DNA of 26,164 bases. Source: a virus. Lineage: Duplodnaviria; Caudoviricetes. The position numbers were made by a program, and so were the translations under genes. Shown piece after piece: positions 8,805-24,595 of the stretch; position 1 is the first letter of the stretch; each line of letters begins with the position of its first letter. Location: the IMG/VR virus record IMGVR_UViG_3300006127_000086, positions 1 to 26,164 of that record. The stretch is one strand, 5' to 3'. Below the pieces are notes generated by a model that saw nothing but the letters and a program-made list of their open reading frames with translations, was not told where the DNA came from and did not search any database.

Positions 8805-9485
8805 ATGAAAGTTTGGATTAGTAAATATCGTAATCATTGGATTTCTCCATATACTATTCTCAAGAAGGTTTGCTTTTGGGAAAAGGATGAGGACATCTTT
8901 TATAATCTCGATGATAAACCTAATGCACCATACGAGAAATGGGTCAAACTACTTGACCCTATTTGTGTTGCGATTCAAAAGTTTTTAGACTTTGTTCACC
9001 CACGATGGACCTATATTAAGATTGACCGATGGGATACTTGGTCGATGGATCATACATTGGCTGAGATTATTTTACCAATGTTAATTCAGCTGCGTAATGA
9101 TAAACATGGTTCACCAATGGTAGATGATGAAGATGTACCAGAAGAATTAAGAGCAGTTAAAAAACCAAAACTAAAACGCAAGAAAAATGATGTTCGTAAT
9201 ACAATACAGGTTCATGCAGTTGATATGGGTGAAGATGATGGTGAATCCACCGTTCACCTTAAATGGGATTGGGTTCTCAATGAAATGATTTGGGCTTTTG
9301 AACAAAAGGTTAAAGATGATGATGAATCACAATTCTTTGACCATACAGGTTGTGGTGATACAGCACCTTGGGATAAAGATTATGTTTCACCTAAGGTAGA
9401 TTGGGATGGATTAAAAGCACATCAAGCAAGAAAGACCAATGGTTTCCGGCTTCTAGGAAAGTACTACGAGGGCCTTTGGGATTAG
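8805..9485 (+). CDS. conserved hypothetical phage protein
   Basis: WDTWSMDHTLAEIILPML...WDWVLNEMIWAF...NGFRLLGKYYEGLWD pattern. Confidence 0.85.
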   Translation: MKVWISKYRNHWISPYTILKKVCFWEKDEDIFYNLDDKPNAPYEKWVKLLDPICVAIQKFLDFVHPRWTYIKIDRWDTWSMDHTLAEIILPMLIQLRNDKHGSPMVDDEDVPEELRAVKKPKLKRKKNDVRNTIQVHAVDMGEDDGESTVHLKWDWVLNEMIWAFEQKVKDDDESQFFDHTGCGDTAPWDKDYVSPKVDWDGLKAHQARKTNGFRLLGKYYEGLWD

Positions 9486-10085
9486 TTTGCAATTATCAAA
9501 ATGCCATCGTTTCATATTTGCAAGTTGACCAGTTTTATTACAATGTGGACAGGTTAGTTTGATTAAATTGTTTTGATGGCACTTTAAATTCTTTTTGTGT
9601 TGTTCAGACATTGGCCTAGGAATACCTTTTGTTGCTTGGGATATTTTTGATTTAATTTCATCACTTAAAGGTTTTCTTTTTTTACCTCTTAACGCATCAG
9701 CTCTTTTTTGTATATGTTCTGGTGTTTGTGGTTTTGAAACTTTATTACTTTCAGATATTAATTTTTTTGTTTTATCCGAAACTTTGTGACCAAAAGTTCC
9801 ATCTCCACCTAATGTTGAATTGTAACCGTTTTTCATAGAGTTGTATTCATTAATAAAATATGATTCCATTTCTTTAAGTGTGTGTTGTTTATCTTTTGAT
9901 TGGTATATTACAGACCATTCAAAATTATCCCAACCATATTTACGGATAGCACGATAGAATTTATAATCTTGATTTTTTGAGGCAGACTTGTGTATTCTGA
10001 CCCTATTCGGCCAGTTAGAATCAAAACCAATGTAAACTTTACCAGTTTTGGTATTGACGGATTTGTAGATAGTGTATATACTCAT
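9453..10085 (-). mobile_element. free-standing GIY-YIG homing endonuclease with NUMOD3-like repeats and C-terminal CPHC Zn finger
   Basis: TIY-x9-VYIG, catalytic R and E, NGYN-x3-GGDG, SDKTKKLISES/SDEIKSKISQA repeats, CPHC...RWHFDNCK; antisense to flanking operon. Confidence 0.9.
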
Positions 10086-13352: not shown

Positions 13353-14798
13353 ATGCTATTTGAAATACACAGCGAGCGTGCTGATGGTGATAAGAAAATC
13401 TTTTACTATGATAATGAGACCAATTATCTCAAGCGTGAAGATGGTATTATTTACCAATTCCCCGAAGGCACAGTTCACGACCATAATTTGACCGAATATA
13501 AGTCATTCGACAAAGACCGACCACTTAAAAAATCAAGACAAATTCAACTACTTAAAATCCAATTGGGTTTAAGTTGTAATTACTCATGCGATTATTGTTC
13601 ACAGAAGTTTGTTGAACGAGCACCAGAAACATCTAAGAAAGATATTGATGCCTTCATGGACTTGTTAAATGAATTGGATTTTGATGAACAAAAAGGATTG
13701 AGAATTGAATTGTGGGGTGGTGAACCACTGGTGTATTGGAAGACATTGAAACCATTGGTGGAGGCCATTGTGGACAAATTCCAAGATTGGAATCGTTTAC
13801 CACAATTCTCTATAATTACCAACGGTTCTATTCTTACCGAAGAAATCTGTGATTGGCTGATGAAGTATAACTTCAATGTGTCCATCTCACATGATGGACC
13901 TGGTCAATCTGTTCGTGGTCCTGATCCATTTGATGATCCAGAGAAAAAGAAAATCATTCTTGGTTTCTATCGTATGATGACCAGATTGAAAAAGGGTATC
14001 TCATTCAACCCAATGATGAACGCAAAGAACAAATCTCGTAAAGAAATCTTTGAATGGTTTGTAAATTTAACTGGCGATGTTAATGTTAAGTTAGGTGAAG
14101 GTGGTATTGTAGATGCTTATGACGAAGAAGGTATTACTAACTCATTACAATCATTAAAAGAGCACTTTGAATATCGTCAACAAGGCTTTGCTGATTTCTT
14201 TACAACTAATGGCCGAATTGGTTTTATTGGTCAACAACAAAAGATTGATGGGTTCACACAAGCAGTATTATCACATTCACCATCTAAGTACCTCGGTCAA
14301 AAATGTGGCATGGACGATGAACACGTTATTGCAGTCGATTTGCGTGGTAATGTAATGACCTGCCAAAATGTAAGTTCATTAGAAATCTCTAAGAATGGTG
14401 AATCACACCTTGGTGGTAACCTTAAAGATTATGATAACGTAGAGATTAAGACTTCTACACATTGGTCAAATCGTAAAGAATGTAGTTCTTGTCCTGTTCT
14501 ACACCTCTGTAAAGGTGCCTGTATGTTCTTGGACAAGAAGTTTTGGGACATTTCATGTGCCAATGCCTATTCTGATAATATTGCTTTGTTTGCTGTATCA
14601 TTAGAAAGAATGACCGGTTACATTCCAACTTTGATTAAAAATGATGCATTACCATTGGAACGCCAAGATATTTGGGGTACAATCTACGAACACAAAGAGA
14701 AACCTGTTAAAAAGATTATACCAATCAAAATTGTAAGTGAAGTAATTGGCGAGATGGATGGTGTGGAAGTTTACGGTAAATCCAGAATTGAAGAATGA
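13353..14798 (+). CDS. radical SAM enzyme with SPASM domain (peptide/protein maturase type)
   Basis: CNYSCDYC (CxxxCxxC), WGGEP, ITNG, ISHDG; SPASM CG...GNVMTC...CSSC-x5-C-x3-C...C. Confidence 0.93.
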   Translation: MLFEIHSERADGDKKIFYYDNETNYLKREDGIIYQFPEGTVHDHNLTEYKSFDKDRPLKKSRQIQLLKIQLGLSCNYSCDYCSQKFVERAPETSKKDIDAFMDLLNELDFDEQKGLRIELWGGEPLVYWKTLKPLVEAIVDKFQDWNRLPQFSIITNGSILTEEICDWLMKYNFNVSISHDGPGQSVRGPDPFDDPEKKKIILGFYRMMTRLKKGISFNPMMNAKNKSRKEIFEWFVNLTGDVNVKLGEGGIVDAYDEEGITNSLQSLKEHFEYRQQGFADFFTTNGRIGFIGQQQKIDGFTQAVLSHSPSKYLGQKCGMDDEHVIAVDLRGNVMTCQNVSSLEISKNGESHLGGNLKDYDNVEIKTSTHWSNRKECSSCPVLHLCKGACMFLDKKFWDISCANAYSDNIALFAVSLERMTGYIPTLIKNDALPLERQDIWGTIYEHKEKPVKKIIPIKIVSEVIGEMDGVEVYGKSRIEE

Positions 14799-15514
14799 AT
14801 GTAATTGTTTGGACATTGTTAACCTCTCATGTAGGTGTAATGGTAACATCCATATACTTACATAGAGGTCTTTGCCATAAACAATTTACAATGAATCCTG
14901 TATTGGAACATATCTTCCGTTTTCTAATGTGGATAACAGAAGGTATTGTCTCAAAGGATTTCGTAGCACAACACCGCAAACACCACAAGTATTCAGATGT
15001 ACAAGGTGACCCACATTCACCCAAACTATGTGGTTATTGGAAGGTCACATCTCAATGCCTGATACCTAATTTCTTTAAGAAGTATAGGTATTTTTTAGAT
15101 GAATGGGCATTACAGAACTATGGTGGTGGTACACCTGAGGACTGGTTGGAAAAGAATGTATATTGCCATACCAAGTTAGGTCCTTTAGTATTATTGGTCA
15201 TAAACCTATTCTTATTTGGATGGGTCGGAATGGTGTCTTGGGTGTGTTCCATGTTTATTACATCATTCTTTATGAACGCCATGATTACGGGGTTTGGCCA
15301 TTGGTTTGGTTACACCAATTATAAGATGAGAGACCACACAAAAAATGTGTTCCCAATTGGCATATTATCATGTGGTGAGGTACTACACCATAACCATCAT
15401 AAAACACCTGGTAATCCTAATTTTTCTCATAAATGGTTTGAGTTTGATTTGGGATGGTTTTACATCAGGATTTTATCAAAACTTAGACTTTTGAAAGTAA
15501 ACAAGAGTATATAA
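14795..15514 (+). CDS. membrane di-iron fatty acid (delta-9/acyl-CoA type) desaturase
   Basis: His boxes HRGLCH, HRKHH, HHNHH; DPHSP; FEFDLGW; TM segments. Confidence 0.9.
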   Translation: MNVIVWTLLTSHVGVMVTSIYLHRGLCHKQFTMNPVLEHIFRFLMWITEGIVSKDFVAQHRKHHKYSDVQGDPHSPKLCGYWKVTSQCLIPNFFKKYRYFLDEWALQNYGGGTPEDWLEKNVYCHTKLGPLVLLVINLFLFGWVGMVSWVCSMFITSFFMNAMITGFGHWFGYTNYKMRDHTKNVFPIGILSCGEVLHHNHHKTPGNPNFSHKWFEFDLGWFYIRILSKLRLLKVNKSI

Positions 15515-15517
15515 ATA
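15510..15517 (+). promoter_or_regulatory. T4-type late promoter
   Basis: Exact TATAAATA 27 nt upstream of the Cys-rich gene. Confidence 0.8.
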
Positions 15518-15544
15518 GTGATATATTTCAACAAAGAGTAAAAA

Positions 15545-16540
15545 ATGACGCTACCATCATCCGGACAAATTGCTGTTTCAGACGTAAATAATGAATTGGG
15601 AATAGGTACTACCTATGGTTCTTCATTGTCCTTCTTAAATGGTTACATGAAATCGCCAGCAAATCCACCAAATTTGGCTGCTTTTTATGGTATGACTTAT
15701 TTCCAAAATAATAACCAAGGTAATTGTAACAACGGTAACTGCGCCACATCTGGAGGTCCTAACGGCAACTGTACAAGTAACTGTAATTGTGGTAATAAAC
15801 AATGTACCAACTGTTATATTTCTGGTACTTCAGACTGTTCTAATTGTTCTAATTGTAATGCCATCAATTGTTCCAACTGTGATTCTAGACCATATCTACA
15901 ACCAAATTGCAATTGTAATTGTACCTATAATTGCACTACTAATGCCGTATCATATAATTGTACAACAGGTCAAGTATCTTATAACTGTAATTGTGATTGT
16001 AATTGCTCTAAGATTGTGTGTGGTAAATTACATGATTTAGGTATGATGAGTCACAATGTGTGGGCAGCTGACCAAGCATATGGTCGTTTATTGAGAGCCA
16101 CAGATAAAGACATTTATCGTGGGTATATCCGTTGGGCACGACCTGTTACACAATGGATGGACACTAGAGGTTCAGACTTTATGTTATGGGTCAATAAAGA
16201 ACAACGTAAAAAAGAACAAGCAAAGATGATGATTGCTTTAACACATAAAGTCGGTTCACCATGGTCCGAACACATGGCATATCTGATGGGCGCTATCAAG
16301 AATGATAATGAACATGGTCGTCTTTTAATGAAGATTGGTCGTTTCTTCTGCAAATCAGTAAACTATATTCCTAAAGTGCCAACGAAGTATAAGAAATCTA
16401 AATGGTTGATACCATATTCATTATTGAGTTCATATACAATCTGGTTCTTATTAGAATTTAGTTACTATACAACACTTACATACCTCAAAGCAAAACAAGC
16501 ATTTGATGTATTAATACACAAAGAAGTAAAGGAATATTAA
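15545..16540 (+). CDS. Asn/Cys-repeat protein, probable late/virion protein and candidate substrate of the cluster
   Basis: N-terminal MTLPSSGQIAVSDVNNELG; 21 Cys in residues 61-154; distinct C-terminal domain starting KIVC; late promoter. Confidence 0.85.
   Translation: MTLPSSGQIAVSDVNNELGIGTTYGSSLSFLNGYMKSPANPPNLAAFYGMTYFQNNNQGNCNNGNCATSGGPNGNCTSNCNCGNKQCTNCYISGTSDCSNCSNCNAINCSNCDSRPYLQPNCNCNCTYNCTTNAVSYNCTTGQVSYNCNCDCNCSKIVCGKLHDLGMMSHNVWAADQAYGRLLRATDKDIYRGYIRWARPVTQWMDTRGSDFMLWVNKEQRKKEQAKMMIALTHKVGSPWSEHMAYLMGAIKNDNEHGRLLMKIGRFFCKSVNYIPKVPTKYKKSKWLIPYSLLSSYTIWFLLEFSYYTTLTYLKAKQAFDVLIHKEVKEY
15722..16006 (+). repeat. protein-level (N/D/Q)-C repeat tract
   Basis: 18 NC, 2 DC, 1 QC dipeptides; codons vary (AAT/AAC, TGT/TGC). 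Confidence 0.9.
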
Positions 16541-16541
16541 A

Positions 16542-16940
16542 ATGGCAATTCCATTTCCAGAAGTATCTGTTGAACAATACAATTCTTGTTTCAAATATTT
16601 TTTAGATGTTGAGTTAAATGGTATCATTTCAGAGTTGAATGCTGACGAAAAGAACCAATTCTTTAAAATGATTACTGAATATCCTGCTCTATTAGATAAG
16701 TTATTCTTTGTTAAAGGTGCGCCTTTTACCAACTATGTAATTTATGGTAATGAATTCTATGAGGCTTTAGCAGACCACCATGATGATATTGATTACACAC
16801 CAAGTTGGATTGTTTCTGAATACAAAGAGTGGTTAGTAAACAACAAAATGCCTTTTCCTGAAGATAAAGCAGTAAAAGATGGTTTAGATTTTACTCCAAT
16901 GCTAAACTTCCAAGCTAAAATGGCAGAACTCACAAAATAA
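16542..16940 (+). CDS. hypothetical acidic protein in the cluster
   Basis: AAGGA RBS, 1 nt after the Cys-rich gene. Confidence 0.85.
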   Translation: MAIPFPEVSVEQYNSCFKYFLDVELNGIISELNADEKNQFFKMITEYPALLDKLFFVKGAPFTNYVIYGNEFYEALADHHDDIDYTPSWIVSEYKEWLVNNKMPFPEDKAVKDGLDFTPMLNFQAKMAELTK

Positions 16941-16956
16941 AGTTTTCTACTATATT

Positions 16957-17610
16957 ATGGAATTAGAAAAGGGTGTGTACCCAAGTAGTGTAGATAAATC
17001 ACTTTGGGAAAGTCCAATATGGGTAAGAAAAACTGGTTTTGATATACACTTCAACAAAGAATTGTTATTAGAATTATACAATATTGCTAACAATATCAAA
17101 TTAGGTTTAGATGAGAATGTCGGCAGTAGTTTATTGGATTACACACACAATCACCCCTGCCTCAAAGAATTACTTGAAACTAAAAAACGAGTAATTACTG
17201 AGGTCGTCAATCAATATTTACCCAAGACACATAAAGCATCTTTCTTTCCCATTTCCAGTTGGTTAAATGTAAAAGAATCTGACGAGGTGATTGAGATGCA
17301 TGGTCATCCAGATTCAACAATCGCCTGTACCTATTACATAACTGTACCAACCAATGGTGGTGAACTATATTATTTGGACACAGGTAAAATAGGTGAACAC
17401 CACACTTCAATCAAACAAATCAAACCTGAAATCGGTGATTTAGTATTTTTTCCATCATATGTGTTACATGGGGTAACTGCCAATAAAGATAATAACTTGA
17501 GAGTAAGTTTATCTACCGATTACAGTTACAAATTAACTGATGATAGTAAAGATCAATTGGTGATATCAAGTTGGATTAATTCAATGATTAAGATAGAAAA
17601 ACTATTATGA
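16957..17610 (+). CDS. 2OG-Fe(II) oxygenase (TIGR02466-like)
   Basis: WLN...HGHPDS..CTYY...GGEL...PEIGDLVFFPSYVLHGV...RVSLS. Confidence 0.88.
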   Translation: MELEKGVYPSSVDKSLWESPIWVRKTGFDIHFNKELLLELYNIANNIKLGLDENVGSSLLDYTHNHPCLKELLETKKRVITEVVNQYLPKTHKASFFPISSWLNVKESDEVIEMHGHPDSTIACTYYITVPTNGGELYYLDTGKIGEHHTSIKQIKPEIGDLVFFPSYVLHGVTANKDNNLRVSLSTDYSYKLTDDSKDQLVISSWINSMIKIEKLL

Positions 17611-18170
17611 ATCCATATTACACAAAATTAAAACCTATTGATTTGGCCAAGTTTATCAATTTTAAAATATTGGGGTCACAATACATCTGTGCAGGTTCAT
17701 TGGCTGAATATTCATATGTTGATGTTGATAGTTCCATTATTGTACCAGAGCCATATCAAGATAAATTCTTCACAACACATTTAGCAATTAGTGGTAAAGT
17801 TGTACCTCACCGTGACCAAGGCATTCAATGTAAGATTAATATCTACCTCTCAGATAATCATGCCATCACAAGATTCTATTCATCCACAAACCAATCAGAT
17901 TACAAAGAGATTGCTAAAGATTGTGTTGGTTGTAACTATGATAAGTTTATAAGTGGTGAATGTGCTTGTAGTATTAAACCGTATAATCTTACATTAGTTG
18001 ACCAGTATGAGGCAAAACCATATGATGTATATCTATTAAATACAACACAGATGCATAGTGTAGAAGAAATTACTTCTGATAATGTTAGGTTGGCACTCAC
18101 GATGACCACAGGTATGAGTTATGAATCTGTTTATAACATATTAAAAGACCATGGATTAATTGATGTTTAA
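17607..18170 (+). CDS. putative 2OG-Fe(II) oxygenase (DSBH)
   Basis: PHRD...LLNTTQMHSV...RLALT (HxD...H...R). Confidence 0.75.
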   Translation: MNPYYTKLKPIDLAKFINFKILGSQYICAGSLAEYSYVDVDSSIIVPEPYQDKFFTTHLAISGKVVPHRDQGIQCKINIYLSDNHAITRFYSSTNQSDYKEIAKDCVGCNYDKFISGECACSIKPYNLTLVDQYEAKPYDVYLLNTTQMHSVEEITSDNVRLALTMTTGMSYESVYNILKDHGLIDV

Positions 18171-18696
18171 AATAATTGGTAATGTTCATATTGGTGGCGT
18201 CAATATATTAAAAAAACAAATTGAGTTTTCCACAAGACCAGATGATAAAGAGTTCTATGGTATAAGATACTATGATGTTGAATCTCCAATCTTATCATAT
18301 ATTTACTCTCTTTTACCTTCAGAAGTACACAAAGATTTTTACTCATCACTATTAATGATAAATGATAATCTACCCGCACACACAGACATTGTAGAAACGG
18401 CAGCATTCAATTGTTATATTAAACCTGGTAACTATTACACCAGTTTCTATACAAGTAAACCAAACCCAACATTAAGTGAATATGCTGACCATGGCGAAGG
18501 TCATATTTACCAACCAGAAGATTTGGTATTCATGGGTGGGTTTCAGGCGAAACAATTTGATATAGTACTGATTAATAATAAGGTGATTCATGGTGTGGTA
18601 TCAAATACTCTTGCCAAAGAGGTTAGAGAAGTGTTACAATTAGCAACTAATAAGTATAGTTATAATGAAGTATGTAATATGTTGAAAGGTGTATAA
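18163..18696 (+). CDS. putative 2OG-Fe(II) oxygenase (DSBH)
   Basis: AHTD...LINNKVIHGV...REVLQ; same architecture as previous gene. Confidence 0.75.
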   Translation: MFKIIGNVHIGGVNILKKQIEFSTRPDDKEFYGIRYYDVESPILSYIYSLLPSEVHKDFYSSLLMINDNLPAHTDIVETAAFNCYIKPGNYYTSFYTSKPNPTLSEYADHGEGHIYQPEDLVFMGGFQAKQFDIVLINNKVIHGVVSNTLAKEVREVLQLATNKYSYNEVCNMLKGV

Positions 18697-19466
18697 TGTT
18701 TTACGAAAAACTAGATATTAAATTTGACCTTGAAAAATTAAGAGAAGAAGTAAAGAAATCTGTATTTACTTTGGGTGACCAAGTTATTCAAGGTGAAGAA
18801 TATGAAACGCCACAATATAATGGTTTTGGTGGTTGGAGTTTACTAAGTCAATCTGGTGACTGGCGAGATGGTTTTGAATTCTTTCAAAACGAACAAGGTA
18901 CTTCTTTAGAAGAAGTATTCTTTCCAAAAAATTCAAACAACTATGAGACTTTAAAATATCTTGGAATTACACATTCAATGTTGTACAAGATTCCAACACA
19001 GGCATGTGTAGGTGAGATTAAAAAATTGTTAGATGAAATTGAATCGTTAGGTTTTTATCCTAGGCGAGCAAGAATTACTTGTTTGAAAGCAGGTTCCAAA
19101 TCATTAGTTCATAGTGATGGACCTAAACAAGAGTATATAGCTAGAATTCACATTCCATTATGGACAAATAAAAAAAGTGTTTTCATTTGTGACGGTATTA
19201 ACTTACATATGGAAGCAGGTTCTGCTTATATTGTTTGGGTCAATGATTGGCACCAAATTAGAAATGATGGTGACGAAGATAGATATCATATCATCATGGA
19301 TGCCTACGATACCAAAAAGATTACACAAACTTTTCATTATGATGGTGAAATCAAACAACTTGAAGATTATGCTGAGGCATTACAAAAGAGAATTGATGAG
19401 ACAGTAATCACTCCTGAGAAGATTGAACTCTTTGAGAATGAACTGAGTAAGTATAGAACCAAGTAA
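18696..19466 (+). CDS. aspartyl/asparaginyl beta-hydroxylase-like 2OG-Fe(II) oxygenase
   Basis: RARITCLKAGS..VHSD...RIHIPLWTN...HMEAGSAY...WHQIRNDGDEDRYHIIMD. Confidence 0.85.
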   Translation: MFYEKLDIKFDLEKLREEVKKSVFTLGDQVIQGEEYETPQYNGFGGWSLLSQSGDWRDGFEFFQNEQGTSLEEVFFPKNSNNYETLKYLGITHSMLYKIPTQACVGEIKKLLDEIESLGFYPRRARITCLKAGSKSLVHSDGPKQEYIARIHIPLWTNKKSVFICDGINLHMEAGSAYIVWVNDWHQIRNDGDEDRYHIIMDAYDTKKITQTFHYDGEIKQLEDYAEALQKRIDETVITPEKIELFENELSKYRTK

Positions 19467-19467
19467 T

Positions 19468-20004
19468 ATGAATACACAAATACTTTTTGGAACACCTTTT
19501 TGGTCTAAAAAACTTACTGATGATAATGAATTTAATCTATCTTTATTAAAAGAAGGATTAAACTATCAAGGTGGTAATTATTTTGATTTGCCTGGTGAAT
19601 CAATTGCAAAGTTAAAAGATGAAGTTAGCAAAGAGATAACTGAAATTATTAAGATTCATAAACCCTCTTATAATTCAATTAAATTTGAAGCAAGACAAAA
19701 TCCAATTGAACCATTACAAGATGATAGTCCACATTTTCATCCTGAACGTTTTTTGGTGGCAGTATATTATGTTCGTGTGCCTGAATCATCAGGAGATTTA
19801 TTACTACATGATCCTAGGGGTTCGGTAAATTGGAACGACAACCAAATAATCTCAGATAATATCAAATTAGGTAGAACATTTTATAAAGTATCACCAATAG
19901 AAGGAACATTGGTAATATTCCCAGGATATTTAATACACTCGGTTACTACTAATCTAAGTAATGATGTACGAGTAAGTATTGCAATTAATATAATAGTAGA
20001 ATAA
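19468..20004 (+). CDS. 2OG-Fe(II) oxygenase (TIGR02466-like)
   Basis: HFHP..LVAVYYV..PESSGDLLLHDPRG...EGTLVIFPGYLIHSV..N...RVSIAIN. Confidence 0.9.
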   Translation: MNTQILFGTPFWSKKLTDDNEFNLSLLKEGLNYQGGNYFDLPGESIAKLKDEVSKEITEIIKIHKPSYNSIKFEARQNPIEPLQDDSPHFHPERFLVAVYYVRVPESSGDLLLHDPRGSVNWNDNQIISDNIKLGRTFYKVSPIEGTLVIFPGYLIHSVTTNLSNDVRVSIAINIIVE

Positions 20005-20005
20005 T

Positions 20006-20670
20006 ATGCCATTTACCTTTTGTCCACCAAAAGTCCTCGATGACTTAAAATCTGAAACCTTTCCTGATGGCATGAGGTATTATACTCTACCTGATGGTAC
20101 TAAATTGCCTTCTGTTACTACTGTGATTGGCGCCCAAAAGAAAGAGGGTATCATGAAATGGCGTAAAAGAGTTGGTGAAGCAGAAGCTAATAGAATCTCC
20201 AAACAAGCAACAGGTCGAGGCACCAATGTACACACCTTATGCGAGAGATATCTAAACAATGAGAAGTTAGGCACAATCATGCCTGATGCGTTGGAGATGT
20301 TCCAATCAATTAAGCCACAATTGAATCGTATCGACAATATTCATTATCAAGAATGTGTATTGTGGTCTAAACAATTAGGCATGGCAGGTCGTGTGGATTG
20401 TATTGGTGAATTTGATGGTGTATTATCTGTTATTGACTTTAAAACATCAAAGAAAATTAAAGAAATGGCACACATTGAAGATACTTTTGGCAAACATCAG
20501 CATATGCTTTGATGTATGAAGAAATGATTGGTACACCAATTGATAATCTGGTAATTATTATGGCAGTTGAGAACGAAAAACCTTTGGTATTTCAGCAGAA
20601 AACCGCTGACCACATACCTGGATTGGTAAAAGCGATTGATTATTACCACAAAAATGTTGCCAAAGCCTAA
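20006..20670 (+). pseudogene. PD-(D/E)xK (RecB/Cas4-like) exonuclease with a 1-nt frameshift at about 20482
   Basis: PSVTTV, RGTNVH, AGRVDC, IDFKT in frame; continues in -1 frame YFWQTSAYALMYEEM...VAKA-TAA at 20670. Confidence 0.8.
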
Positions 20671-20735: not shown

Positions 20736-20867
20736 ATGAAAGTAAAAGAACTAGTTAAAAAATTATATAAAGCTGAAGTTAATCACAATATGAGTAAAGT
20801 GAAAAAACTTTGGTTTAAACTGTTGAAGAAAAGCCTTAAAGGCAAGCATACTGAAGCAGTTAAGTAA
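20736..20867 (+). CDS. small very basic protein (43 aa, not in ORF track)
   Basis: GAGG RBS; MKVKELVKKLYKAEVNHNMSKVKKLWFKLLKKSLKGKHTEAVK. Confidence 0.7.
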   Translation: MKVKELVKKLYKAEVNHNMSKVKKLWFKLLKKSLKGKHTEAVK

Positions 20868-21160
20868 TTCGTAGAAGTTGTTTGAAAGTTGTTGTGGACG
20901 CTGGGGCAGTACCAGCCCGGTCCACCATAATCGTATATGAAAACCAATCCTAATGTACGATTATGATGGGCCGGAAATAGATTCGACATGGCAATAATTA
21001 GAACAATGGAGAATCGGCAAAGCGAAAGCCGTTAGGATTGAGGACACTCGGTCGAAGAAGCAAATTAAATTAAACGCTAACGATGAAAGTTACGCACTGG
21101 CAGCCTAAACACCTGTCGGAGTTTTCCAGCGATTGTACTTGGCAACAGAAACAATCGTTC
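20868..21160 (+). ncRNA. ssrA: circularly permuted (two-piece) tmRNA
   Basis: Acceptor piece ends GCTGG-GGCAGTA-CCAGC-CCGGTCC-A-CCA (20927). Coding piece starts GGGCCGG...GATTCGAC (20968), giving a G3-U70 pair. Tag ANDESYALAA-TAA at 21076-21108; 3' hairpin with GCAACAGAA. Outer ends approximate. Confidence 0.93.
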
Positions 21161-21231
21161 CACAAACCCTATCACAAAGTCAGAAGTACTTGGGTCCAAG
21201 GTCAGAGTAACGACCGTAAACAAAAGGAGAT

Positions 21232-21762
21232 ATGATGTTCGCATCAAAATCAAAAGCTATATTATTGTTGTTAAGTTGTGCTTTATTGGCATATTCATTC
21301 CCATCTATTTCACAAGAGGTTACTCAAATGGTAGTAGAACAACAAGTGAGTGAAGATTTCAATAAACAATTAAAGTGCCTTGCAGATAATGTTTATTTTG
21401 AATCCGCAACAGAGTCCTATGAAGGTAAATTGGCAGTAGCACAGGTAACAATCAATCGTGCAAACGATCCAAAGTTTGGTGGTACAGTATGTGAAGTGGT
21501 ATACCAACGTAGTTATGTTAATAAGTTGGTGGTATGCCAGTTTTCATGGACTTGTATGAAAAATATGTTGGTAAGAGACAAGTATGCCTACGATGAATCT
21601 GAAATGGTTGCAAGAAAGGCCTTGACGGAACCAGATGTTCATGATACAATAGCGAGAACAAATGCGTTATACTATCATAACACACAGGTGAATCCAGGTT
21701 GGAACTTACAACGAGTTACACAAATTGGTCACCACATATTTTATAAAGCAAAGAATATTTGA
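21232..21762 (+). CDS. SleB-like cell wall hydrolase (Hydrolase_2) with signal peptide
   Basis: CLADNVYFES..E...GKLAVAQVTINR...VCEVVYQ...QFSW...ALYYH...IGHHIFYK; AGGAG RBS. Confidence 0.9.
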   Translation: MMFASKSKAILLLLSCALLAYSFPSISQEVTQMVVEQQVSEDFNKQLKCLADNVYFESATESYEGKLAVAQVTINRANDPKFGGTVCEVVYQRSYVNKLVVCQFSWTCMKNMLVRDKYAYDESEMVARKALTEPDVHDTIARTNALYYHNTQVNPGWNLQRVTQIGHHIFYKAKNI

Positions 21763-21763
21763 G

Positions 21764-21985
21764 ATGCCTACAAGAGATGAGATTAAACAATTTAGTATGA
21801 TGATTGAACAATTGGCGGCAGATGAACATTTAGGTTTAATGGATGCCATCTGCCATCATTGTAAAGAAACAGAATTAGAAATAGAAGTTGCTGCCAGTTT
21901 AATTAGTTCAGCACTCAAAGCCAAGATTAAAGAAGAAGCACAAAGTTTAAATTTAATTAAGAAATCTAGTAAACTACCAATATGA
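21764..21985 (+). CDS. 33: late promoter transcription coactivator gp33
   Basis: FSMMIE...MDAI..C...LIS..LKAKIKEEAQSLNL; T4 synteny 33-59-32. Confidence 0.85.
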   Translation: MPTRDEIKQFSMMIEQLAADEHLGLMDAICHHCKETELEIEVAASLISSALKAKIKEEAQSLNLIKKSSKLPI

Positions 21986-22602
21986 GTGAAAACACAGGCT
22001 TTGCGGCCTTTGCTTTATATAATGCTATAAAATTACATTTTACATCCGATTCTTACGATTACTTTAAATATAATGGCAAGACGAATGTATCAAAGCAGTC
22101 CTTTATGGTACGAAAAGATAAGTACCAATTCTATAAATTGTCCCGTAAATATTCTTTAGAAGAACTTAGAGATTTTTATGTGGCAAACTTTCTACAAGGT
22201 GATAAGTGGGTAGGTGATATGACTGGTACTGAAGGTGAGGAAAATTACCTAAAATGGCAAAAAACTCAACAGGCCTTGACTTATACTTTTAATAATGATA
22301 TAATATACTTGTTTGATTTGGTAGATGGTGCCGAGTCTTGGACAAGAGATGATATATTGAGATGCCACGGTGGCGGTTGGCCAATGATTATCACTAAGTT
22401 GATGAAGAATGAAGTAACATTAGAATCGGTTTGTATTTTGGTTGATTTGGTAGGTTGTATGCCTCGATGGGAAAAGGAAGTTACTGAAGATATTATTTGG
22501 CCATTCTGGCACCGATTGATTAAAAAGTATACACCATTTATACAGTATGATAAAGAAAAGTTTTTAAAGAATTTGAAAGAAAAAATTAAAGAATATGCGT
22601 AA
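21982..22602 (+). CDS. 59: helicase loader gp59
   Basis: LYNAIKLHFTSDSYDYFKYNGK...RKDKYQFYKLSRKY...KKYTPF. Confidence 0.9.
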   Translation: MSENTGFAAFALYNAIKLHFTSDSYDYFKYNGKTNVSKQSFMVRKDKYQFYKLSRKYSLEELRDFYVANFLQGDKWVGDMTGTEGEENYLKWQKTQQALTYTFNNDIIYLFDLVDGAESWTRDDILRCHGGGWPMIITKLMKNEVTLESVCILVDLVGCMPRWEKEVTEDIIWPFWHRLIKKYTPFIQYDKEKFLKNLKEKIKEYA

Positions 22603-23086
22603 GCCACAAATTAGTTGTATATATCTTGATATGGATGGAGTTATTGCTGATTTCACCAAGAGATATCAAGAGTTATACAAGATGATGCCAAGAGAGGCAG
22701 AAAAGAATAAACAGTTCAATAAATTCTTTGATGAGTTTATTGCTACAGGTCAATTTGCAACATTAGAATTGATGCCAGGAACTATGGAAGGAATTGAATT
22801 TCTCCGTAAGGCTTCTGTACCTACTCAAATTCTATCCTCAACAGCAAGTCAGGAAAGATATGATGCGATTTCTAAACAGAAATTGATATGGTTACAGACA
22901 CATGGTATTACATTCACTCCAAACTTTGTTCCAGGTAAAAGACTGAAACAAGAGTATGCAGCACCTGATAAGATTATCATTGATGATACTGAATCCGTTA
23001 TCGAACAATGGAAAGCAAAAGGTGGTATTGGCATTCTTCACAAAGATTGGCCAACCACTCTGGCAATACTTAAAATGTATGTTTAA
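22595..23086 (+). CDS. HAD-family 5'(3')-deoxyribonucleotidase-like protein
   Basis: IYLDMDGVIADF (DxD), ILSS, K..WL, IIIDD...W...GGIGILH. Confidence 0.85.
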   Translation: MRKPQISCIYLDMDGVIADFTKRYQELYKMMPREAEKNKQFNKFFDEFIATGQFATLELMPGTMEGIEFLRKASVPTQILSSTASQERYDAISKQKLIWLQTHGITFTPNFVPGKRLKQEYAAPDKIIIDDTESVIEQWKAKGGIGILHKDWPTTLAILKMYV

Positions 23087-23088
23087 TC

Positions 23089-23595
23089 ATGAAACCTAGT
23101 TTAAAGTATAATTCATTATCTAAAGAAATATTACAACACCTTTTTAATTATGAAGATGGTGAATTATATTGGAAAAATCACCATTGGTTTAAAAATAATG
23201 TAGGTAAAAAAGCCGGAACAAAAATGAAAACTGGATATTACCACATTTGTATCAAACAACAGATTTATTTAAAACACCGATTGATATTTTTATATCATCA
23301 CGGATATTTACCAGAATATATCGACCATATAAATGGTGATAAAGATAATAACAGAATTGAAAATTTAAGACCAGCAGATTATAATCAAAATGGTTATAAT
23401 CAAAAAATTCCAAAAAATAATAAAAGTGGATATAAAGGTGTTGTCTGGCGTGAAAATCAAAAAAGGTGGATAGCTCAAGTTGGTTATAAAAACAAAATGT
23501 ATCATCTTGGTAGTTTTATTTTAAAAAAAGATGCCATTGATACTGTTAAAATTTTTAGAGAAAAACACCACAAAGAATTTGCTCGAGAAGCTTGA
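23089..23595 (+). mobile_element. HNH homing endonuclease with AP2-like C-terminal domain
   Basis: HRLIF...IDHINGDKDNNRIENLR...N; NKSGYKGV.W....RWIAQV...HLGSF. Confidence 0.88.
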
Positions 23596-23620
23596 TTTTT
23601 ACTAAATATTATGATATAGT
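23592..23620 (+). promoter_or_regulatory. composite sigma70 + late-like promoter of gene 32
   Basis: TTGATT, 17 bp spacer, TGn-TATAGT with CTAAATA (23602-23608) in the spacer. Confidence 0.65.
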
Positions 23621-23692
23621 AGTTGATTATGAGAAGTAATTTGAATAAGTCGTTTATATTCCGTTTATACACCGTTAATAAGGAGAAGTACA

Positions 23693-24595
23693 ATGAGTTT
23701 CGCTAATCTCAAACGCCAATCAGGCAACCTCAGCAAATTACAACAAGCAGTTGAGGCACTCAATCAAAACCCCGAAGCAGGTTCAGATAAATCAGAAAAC
23801 TTTTGGAAGCCAGAAGTAGATAAAGCAGGTAATGGCATGGCCGTTATTCGTTTTCTACCTGCATCTGAAAAAGATGGTGATGATGCTCTGCCATGGGTCA
23901 AGATTCATAAACATGGTTTTCAAGGACCTGGTGGTTGGTTAATTGATAATTGTTTAACCACACTTAACAAGCAATGTCCTGTTTGTGAACACAATTCTAC
24001 ATTATGGCAGTCAGGTATTGAAGCTAATAAAGATGTAGTTCGTAAACAGAAACGTAAGTTGGATTATATTGCCAACGTATACATTGTTTCTGATCCAAAA
24101 CATCCTGAAAATGAAGGTAAAGTGAAGTTGTTCCGTTTTGGTAAAAAGATTTTTGATAAAATCTCCGAAGCAATGAACCCACAGTTTGAAGATGAACAAG
24201 CAATCAATCCATTTGATTTATGGAAAGGTGCTAATTTCAAGTTGAAGATTCGTAAGGTAGAAGGTTATCAGAATTATGATAAGTCTGAATTTGAATCACC
24301 ATCAGCATTATTTGAAGATGATGGTCAGATGGAAGATGTTTATAAGCGTGAATTCGCTCTGAGTGATTTGATTGCTGATAAAGAGTTCAAGTCTTATGAT
24401 GAGTTGAAGAAACGTCTTGATAAAGTTCTAGGTTTGAATGGTGAAACACCAACACCTAAGACTACTGTTGAGACAATCAAAGAACAGACTCGTTCAGCAC
24501 CTAAACCAGCAGCAGAAGATTCACCCTTTGTTGAACCAGATTTAACAGAAGATGATGACCTGAGTTATTTTGCTAAACTAGCAGAAGAAGAATAA
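23693..24595 (+). CDS. 32: single-stranded DNA binding protein gp32
   Basis: WKPEVDKAGNG.AVIRFLP, Zn ligands H...C...CPVC, GANFKLKIRKVEGYQNYDKSEF, acidic tail; AGGAG RBS. Confidence 0.96.
   Translation: MSFANLKRQSGNLSKLQQAVEALNQNPEAGSDKSENFWKPEVDKAGNGMAVIRFLPASEKDGDDALPWVKIHKHGFQGPGGWLIDNCLTTLNKQCPVCEHNSTLWQSGIEANKDVVRKQKRKLDYIANVYIVSDPKHPENEGKVKLFRFGKKIFDKISEAMNPQFEDEQAINPFDLWKGANFKLKIRKVEGYQNYDKSEFESPSALFEDDGQMEDVYKREFALSDLIADKEFKSYDELKKRLDKVLGLNGETPTPKTTVETIKEQTRSAPKPAAEDSPFVEPDLTEDDDLSYFAKLAEEE

Follow-up and report, generated by a model that had tools for sequence, protein, structure and literature searches.

Thioether stapling by a radical S-adenosylmethionine (rSAM) enzyme is known from QhpD, whose substrate QhpC, a subunit of quinohaemoprotein amine dehydrogenase, stays in a larger assembly. 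The system described here lies in a stretch of 26,164 nucleotides from a virus of the Caudoviricetes (IMG/VR record IMGVR_UViG_3300006127_000086, positions 1 to 26,164; hereafter the window, meaning this whole stretch). It pairs an rSAM/SPASM enzyme with a protein that carries a tract of adjacent Asn-Cys residues (the Asn-Cys ladder of the NC protein), and it is unlike QhpD/QhpC, which concerns a cellular enzyme subunit and Cys-Asp/Glu links. The results showed that enzyme and ladder form one unit. On the grounds set out below, the enzyme probably modifies the ladder of a predicted virion fibre-tip protein, most likely by forming Cys-Asn thioethers, with the neighbouring oxygenases and desaturase likely adding optional decorations.

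Among the closest described systems is CrpC/CrpA of Methanococcus voltae (TIGR04463). According to the available text of Dieter et al. 2026 (PMC13692751), CrpC carries seven SPASM cysteines, is encoded beside a large Cys-repeat protein and cross-links the whole of it, so that the product is a modified protein and not a short peptide, as we predict for the window. CrpC/CrpA differs in its archaeal chromosome, its CXXQ/D repeats and its recognition of an RRE-bound leader, whereas the window system belongs to a phage, has its adjacent Asn-Cys ladder on tail-type proteins and has no shared leader. The accessible part of PMC9389541 describes NxxcB, which links Cys to Asn by a beta-thioether and can also use Ala, Gln or Asp as acceptor; these four residues are those that precede the ladder cysteines. 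NxxcB and PapB make Cys-to-Asn/Asp beta-thioethers, which are only predicted for the window, and act on short secreted peptides such as NxxcA with NxxC or CX3D spacing, whereas in the window Asn is adjacent to Cys. In the same source, TqqB joins adjacent residues.

The region 13353-20004 of the window is filled by nine adjoining open reading frames (ORFs) on the + strand. An earlier note on this DNA had described the cluster as a dedicated pathway of nine mostly overlapping genes. The ORFs were present, on the same strand and tightly packed; four of the eight junctions overlap and the remaining four are spaced by 1-30 nt, so the overlap holds for half of them. The note had overlooked the C-terminal domain of the NC protein (here called KIIC) and a 132-aa companion, the ninth gene, at 16542-16940, which was missing from its title.

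The radical SAM enzyme and the Asn-Cys ladder form one unit

The first gene (13353-14798, + strand) encodes the 481-aa rSAM/SPASM enzyme, the predicted maturase of the ladder. It matched PF04055 above the cut-off (E 5.8e-09) and phrog_1802 (E 3.6e-63). The CX3CX2C cluster motif at residues 75-82 (C75, C79 and C82), the GGEP motif (G122-G123-E124-P125) and seven cysteines of the SPASM region (C318, C337, C377, C380, C386, C390 and C402) were invariant in 20/20 aligned relatives. The SPASM family was not among the Pfam matches; the C-terminal region aligned to the C-terminal domain of CteB, and the PDB sequence matches were 8vpo and 5wgg. About 60 conserved residues stand N-terminal of the core, and no PqqD-type Pfam match was found there.

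The NC gene (15545-16540, + strand) encodes a tripartite product. Residues 1-59 (15545-15721), conserved in 28 aligned proteins, are a predicted fibre-attachment anchor; residues 60-155 (15722-16009) are the ladder, the predicted substrate; and residues 156-331 are the KIIC domain. The ladder holds 21 Cys and 24 Asn, with 18 NC and 2 DC pairs, whereas 20,000 shuffles of it gave a mean of 5.2 NC pairs and a maximum of 13. Since six different dicodons encode the pairs, the ladder is not a DNA microsatellite, and together with the shuffle test this ruled out a repeat artefact as its origin. In the predicted structure the ladder has no confident fold (predicted local distance difference test score, pLDDT, under 50).

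To describe the pairing, we compared three sets of loci. The viral set consisted of 77 loci retrieved via the rSAM enzyme or the NC protein (52 distinct proteins; L001 is the window's own phage), the GTDB set of the best 80 of 197 rSAM loci, and the reverse set of the best 80 of 159 matches to the ladder+KIIC protein (58 distinct proteins). The rSAM gene was present in 77/77 viral loci and an Asn-Cys protein in 73/77, the four loci lacking it all running off contig ends. A ladder was found in 62 of the 80 GTDB loci and in 54/56 of those with at least 3 kb upstream; opposite-strand ORFs, used as a control for ladder detection, gave 0/4177. In the reverse direction, the rSAM gene adjoined 57/58 distinct ladder+KIIC proteins, the single miss beginning at a contig edge, and it was beside 0/10 KIIC loci without a ladder. 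The two thus co-occur almost without exception. Genomic context therefore bears out the pairing of the two genes made in the earlier note, and the test that it had named, whether rSAM homologues commonly lack a Cys-rich neighbour, showed that they do not. Several Limnohabitans and related genomes (L087-L161) have more than one rSAM+ladder tail module, with four in one metagenome-assembled genome.

We also examined the residues around the cysteines in tracts chosen for having at least two NC pairs. Among 1306 Cys of 82 viral tracts, the preceding residue was Asn in 76%, Ala in 12%, Gln in 6% and Asp in 4%, these four together accounting for 98%; Asn at this position had a frequency of 0.76 against 0.29 expected, and in 43 GTDB tracts it preceded 71% of the cysteines. 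Asn at position -3 reached 0.41, in part from the NC periodicity, and Asp at +4 reached 0.10 against 0.04 expected. The dominant motif thus appears to be adjacent NC, neither NxxC nor CX3D. An odd number of cysteines was found in 40/82 viral tracts, and with odd counts as common as even ones simple disulfide pairing is not favoured. In bacterial genomes and cultured phages, the ladders are borne on unrelated N-termini, in proteins of 72-611 aa. The suggestion of a ranthipeptide with leader and core was not upheld, as these N-termini share no common leader and the CX3D motif is weak. The ladders of P0003, P0010, P0015 and P0051 grow by duplication of three sub-repeats, giving proteins of up to 420 aa.

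Fibre ends and the KIIC module

In the cultured Achromobacter phages JWF and 2-1, the ladder terminates a tail-module protein encoded two genes downstream of the central fibre or hub gene, a Hint domain follows immediately, and the rSAM enzyme (44% identical in JWF, 42% in 2-1) is encoded two genes past the ladder protein. The bacterial ladder proteins lie amid tail and lysis genes, some of them with collagen or CBM domains. In L015, L076, L085 and L086, a short NC gene with the window-type N-terminus comes directly after a fibre gene ended by Peptidase_S74; the position directly after the distal fibre gene is, in the available text of PMC12032242, the place of the gp38 adhesins. In other loci the parts are rearranged: the ladder is fused to S74 in L056, a Gly-rich body is inserted in L072 and L073, and in L242 a similar N-terminus is followed by a Gly-rich body and KIIC without a ladder. 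These arrangements suggest that the ladder belongs to tail-fibre ends. The fibre-tip role put forward for the window protein gained support from this context, since the ladder ends annotated tail-fibre proteins in relatives. No cultured-phage match to the anchor or to a short NC protein was found.

The T-even adhesin gp38, as described in the accessible part of PMC12032242, resembles the NC protein in having a small N-terminal domain and a variable body, and in its gene coming right after a chaperone-ended fibre gene, which holds for the four relatives named above and not for the window. Gly-rich bodies on similar N-termini were seen only in the relatives L072, L073 and L242. The window protein differs in having no Pfam or PDB match, in having an Asn-Cys ladder instead of a polyglycine sandwich as its body, and in its extra C-terminal domain; the Gp38-domain row for it in BFVD had an E value of 2.2. 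The available text of PMC12032242 names no modifying enzyme that gp38 requires, whereas the NC protein is predicted to be modified.

The NC gene is preceded by TATAAATA (15510-15517, + strand), a match to the T4-type late promoter consensus (TATAAATA/TAAATA). This was the single match in the window against 3.25 expected by chance, and by itself is not above chance. TAAATA was found at most 80 nt upstream of 55/85 NC genes, in 50 of these at 26-39 nt, and in the same upstream range of 135/1034 other ORFs, 3/91 genes of the 132-aa family and 20/65 rSAM genes. The conserved position of TAAATA upstream of NC genes supports late expression, as had been supposed. A sigma-70 promoter scan gave matches no more frequent than in shuffles.

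The KIIC domain (16010-16540, + strand) is predicted to be all-helical, with pLDDT mostly over 90, and to be a removable assembly or processing module. Searches of Pfam (including E 0.1), PHROG and NCBIfam matched no family. The full NC-protein model had no PDB match at E 0.001 and its BFVD matches were unnamed phage proteins only; the best VIA fold match (Z 6.7) was not significant and concerned a common helical arrangement. Two assignments were rejected: Hint or Peptidase_S74, as there was no Pfam match at E 0.1 and the domain is predicted all-helical; and CFI-box-CTERM, as NF041770 was found in 0/36 members and hhalign to a stand-alone CFI-box protein gave a probability of 0.2%. In L249, the gene next after a KIIC gene without a ladder encodes a stand-alone CFI-box-CTERM protein (1261-1587). 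With regard to a possible role of KIIC as membrane anchor, its top 19-residue hydropathy was 1.11 in the window and above 1.6 in 97/216 relatives.

A survey of the best 120 of 185 longer matches gave 96 new KIIC proteins. The domain was C-terminal, at most 14 residues from the end, in 96/96, and 83/96 were ladder-free. Its bearers include DUF4815, Gly-rich, PA14, weakly gp5-like and Hint proteins, and the copy of a cultured cyanophage lies between two annotated fibre genes. In P0135 and P0158, KIIC directly follows a Hint/intein C-terminal end, in P0158 twice after tandem Hint.

The gene after KIIC (16542-16940, + strand) encodes a 132-aa helical protein, a predicted partner or chaperone. Members of its family adjoined, or lay within 1.5 kb of, 66/66 ladder+KIIC genes and 5/9 ladder-free KIIC genes, and were found in 0/12 ladder+rSAM loci without KIIC. 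Seven genes too close to contig ends were excluded from this count, and the profile used contained the five ladder-free partners; an earlier profile without them recovered those partners too. The 132-aa gene thus tracks KIIC and not the rSAM gene, and the two form a second, rSAM-independent module. No Pfam domain was found across 48 matches to the family. Identity co-variation over 54 loci was not decisive (rho 0.43 for KIIC and the 132-aa protein, 0.41 for the ladder and the 132-aa protein). Some homologues in L020, L023 and L054 have an N-terminal D-x-N-x-D-G repeat resembling an EF-hand loop.

The slot after the ladder is taken by Hint or S74 domains in L056, JWF, 2-1 and L102. From this common position of Hint, S74 and KIIC, we infer that KIIC is a removable assembly module. 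It shares the slot with the autoprocessing Hint and Peptidase_S74 domains and differs in belonging to neither family and in its predicted all-helical fold; its cleavage is hypothetical. One could also imagine KIIC as a delivered effector, with the 132-aa gene encoding its immunity protein and the ladder protein serving as toxin carrier. KIIC is always C-terminal, in P0135 and P0158 it comes after a Hint/intein end, and a small divergent gene comes after it, all of which would fit. However, KIIC is conserved and not swapped where it ends tail proteins (gp5-like, DUF4815 and Gly-rich ones), a partner was undetected for 4/9 ladder-free KIIC genes and for the cultured cyanophage copy, and structure searches matched no toxin fold, which makes this explanation very improbable.

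Proposed chemistry of the ladder

Thioethers, perhaps between neighbouring residues, are favoured by the residues that precede the cysteines, by the precedents of NxxcB, TqqB and CrpC, by the odd Cys counts and by the absence of a confident fold prediction for the ladder. In the pathway that we propose, the NC gene would be transcribed late from the TATAAATA promoter, along with the 132-aa gene and the five oxygenase genes. The rSAM enzyme would abstract hydrogen at the residue (mostly Asn) that precedes each Cys and bond that carbon to a Cys sulfur bound to an auxiliary Fe-S cluster; since no leader is common to the clade, it would presumably recognise the ladder itself. The PF05118-type and other oxygenases may hydroxylate Asn/Asp or other ladder residues. 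KIIC and its 132-aa companion may help assembly and then be removed or shed in the manner of Hint and S74, which is the weakest step. The N-terminal anchor would dock the stapled ladder onto the tail-fibre end, where the ladder would replace the polyglycine host-binding body of gp38.

The profile searches bear on whether thioethers are the product. The top NCBIfam profile was PapB (NF047865; 90.8 bits, cut-off 340), and scores were lower for the QhpD-type profile TIGR03906 (68.8 bits, cut-off 453), SCIFF TIGR03974 (58 bits, cut-off 425) and CrpC TIGR04463 (53.1 bits, cut-off 525). The enzyme might instead act on the ladder of the virion protein by forming C-C or C-N links, epimers or oxidised Cys, or the cysteines might stay free for metal or inter-chain disulfides. 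SPASM profiles of many reaction types, including cyclophane and sulfatase maturases, scored similarly weakly, and adjacent NC appears to dominate over NxxC or CX3D. On the other hand, the top profile is PapB, both PDB sequence matches are peptide-maturase-type enzymes, and the seven SPASM cysteines equal the count of CrpC, which according to the available text of PMC13692751 leaves one open iron site. We consider this alternative unlikely.

Another explanation is that the ladder is the core of a RiPP (a peptide made by the ribosome and modified afterwards), excised from between the N- and C-terminal domains and released against the host or competing phages. Short stand-alone forms of 72-140 aa do occur, the tailoring sets vary as in natural-product clusters, and processing-type domains come after the ladder. 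Against this, many ladders end tail-module proteins of 180-610 aa without a common leader, a late promoter precedes the NC gene, and neither protease nor exporter was found in the cassette by Pfam, NCBIfam and PHROG searches. Release as a peptide thus appears quite improbable.

Several observations weigh against thioether stapling of a fibre tip by this cassette. The rSAM enzyme is below every maturase-family cut-off in NCBIfam. The loci counted above share ancestry and in part duplicate one another, which means that the counts do not stand for independent events. Over 34 loci, the identity of the enzyme co-varied with that of the ladder (rho 0.40) less than with that of the neighbouring exonuclease (0.55). 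The annotated side tail fibre of Ralstonia phage RSP15 has an end with only three Cys, and for RP12, with a distant rSAM enzyme, a ladder was found in 0/4 proteins translated beside it. The anchor had no PDB match by sequence profile, nor by VIA on its pLDDT 60 model, and its comparison with a GP38 cluster of the Atlas gave a TM score of 0.65, under the tool's bar. The cassette is surrounded in the window by early/replication-type genes, outside any tail module. The desaturase is missing from 32/42 distinct KIIC-type loci, being present in 10/42 (some loci are truncated), and relatives of it stand alone in 11 phage loci.

Cross-linking by rSAM enzymes at the protein scale is already known. No description of its use on virion parts was found in the literature searched, whose coverage leaves out most subscription literature, including the JWF genome paper. 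The available text of PMC12801897 and PMC11118758 does not describe the rSAM-ladder system, and the word phage is absent from the main text and three supplements of PMC13692751. A wider proposal is possible but doubtful: that phages of several tail types staple fibre tips via a portable Asn-Cys tag and a leader-independent rSAM enzyme making adjacent Cys-Asn thioether rings, tuned by swappable oxygenases, desaturases and halogenases, and that in the window's lineage KIIC, a new helical end domain, joins Hint and S74, together with its own small partner, as a third module for assembly that can be removed. If the stapling of fibre tips were real, many phages and prophages from aquatic habitats would have host-binding parts whose chemistry departs from the gene sequence, and enzymes could then help to set host range alongside fibre sequence. 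A role would also be found for some of the many unexplained phage oxygenase and rSAM genes, the cross-linking of proteins by rSAM enzymes would reach beyond cells to virions, and an enzyme for stapling a short portable tag would become available. The cultured phages JWF and 2-1 allow direct testing of ladder modification.

Accessory enzymes and the rest of the window

The gene between those of the rSAM enzyme and the NC protein (14795-15514, + strand) encodes a membrane-type desaturase of 239 aa, an accessory with three His boxes (PF00487, E 1.5e-10); it scored 251.9 against the DesA profile (cut-off 400), the window protein being shorter. Five 2OG-Fe(II) (2-oxoglutarate and iron-dependent) oxygenases had been claimed downstream. 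Three pass Pfam cut-offs: a TIGR02466-like protein of 217 aa (16957-17610, + strand; PF13759, E 1.5e-16), an Asp/Asn beta-hydroxylase-like protein of 256 aa (18696-19466, + strand; PF05118, E 4e-08; weak PDB match to a beta-hydroxylase, E 0.032) and a second TIGR02466-like protein of 178 aa (19468-20004, + strand; PF13759, E 1.8e-18; 60.6 bits against TIGR02466, cut-off 62.5). The other two are putative and rest on a motif: the products of 17607-18170 (+ strand, 187 aa) and its paralogue 18160-18696 (+ strand, 178 aa), whose families share an invariant H-x-D...H...R in a 21-sequence alignment (H74, D76, H144 and R156 in the latter). The 187-aa protein had just sub-threshold matches to HalD/BesD, and its paralogue had no match in the Pfam, NCBIfam and PHROG libraries.

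The number and type of these enzymes vary between loci. Among the 42 KIIC-type loci, some of them truncated, the PF05118-type oxygenase was found in 38, and the types encoded at 16957 and 18160 in 36 each. None of the ten short-type loci has a desaturase, and some have halogenases, cupins or a second rSAM enzyme instead. A fixed nine-gene pathway, as originally envisaged, is thus not what the relatives have. The oxygenases and desaturase are variable accessories that may plausibly act on the ladder.

It could be argued that only the rSAM enzyme and the ladder form a unit, and that host lipid is what the desaturase remodels, with metabolites or DNA as the targets of the oxygenases, all gathered in a variable region. 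The stand-alone desaturase relatives mentioned above agree with this, as does the variation of the oxygenases, which are scarce or absent in RSP15 and JWF. This explanation is harder to reconcile with the presence of three oxygenase types in 36-38 of the 42 KIIC-type loci and with the PF13759 oxygenases that sit between the ladder gene and the rSAM gene in prophage tail modules. In addition, a tree with long branches and biased sampling separated 31 desaturases of cassettes from 5 phage copies that stand alone, at 100/99. We regard such passenger enzymes as rather unlikely.

The window is a piece of a T4-like phage genome; a Pfam search placed the families of the gp33 late coactivator, gp59 and gp32 at 21725-24595. 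Directly after the cassette, a PD-(D/E)XK exonuclease ORF (20006-20670) is interrupted where, near 20483, the window differs by one base from the L001 contig of the same phage, in which the exonuclease is intact (221 aa); the interruption is likely an assembly error. Two free-standing homing-endonuclease-like ORFs, judged by eye from the translations, lie at 9453-10085 and 23089-23595, and a permuted transfer-messenger RNA with the tag ANDESYALAA was found at 20835-21199.

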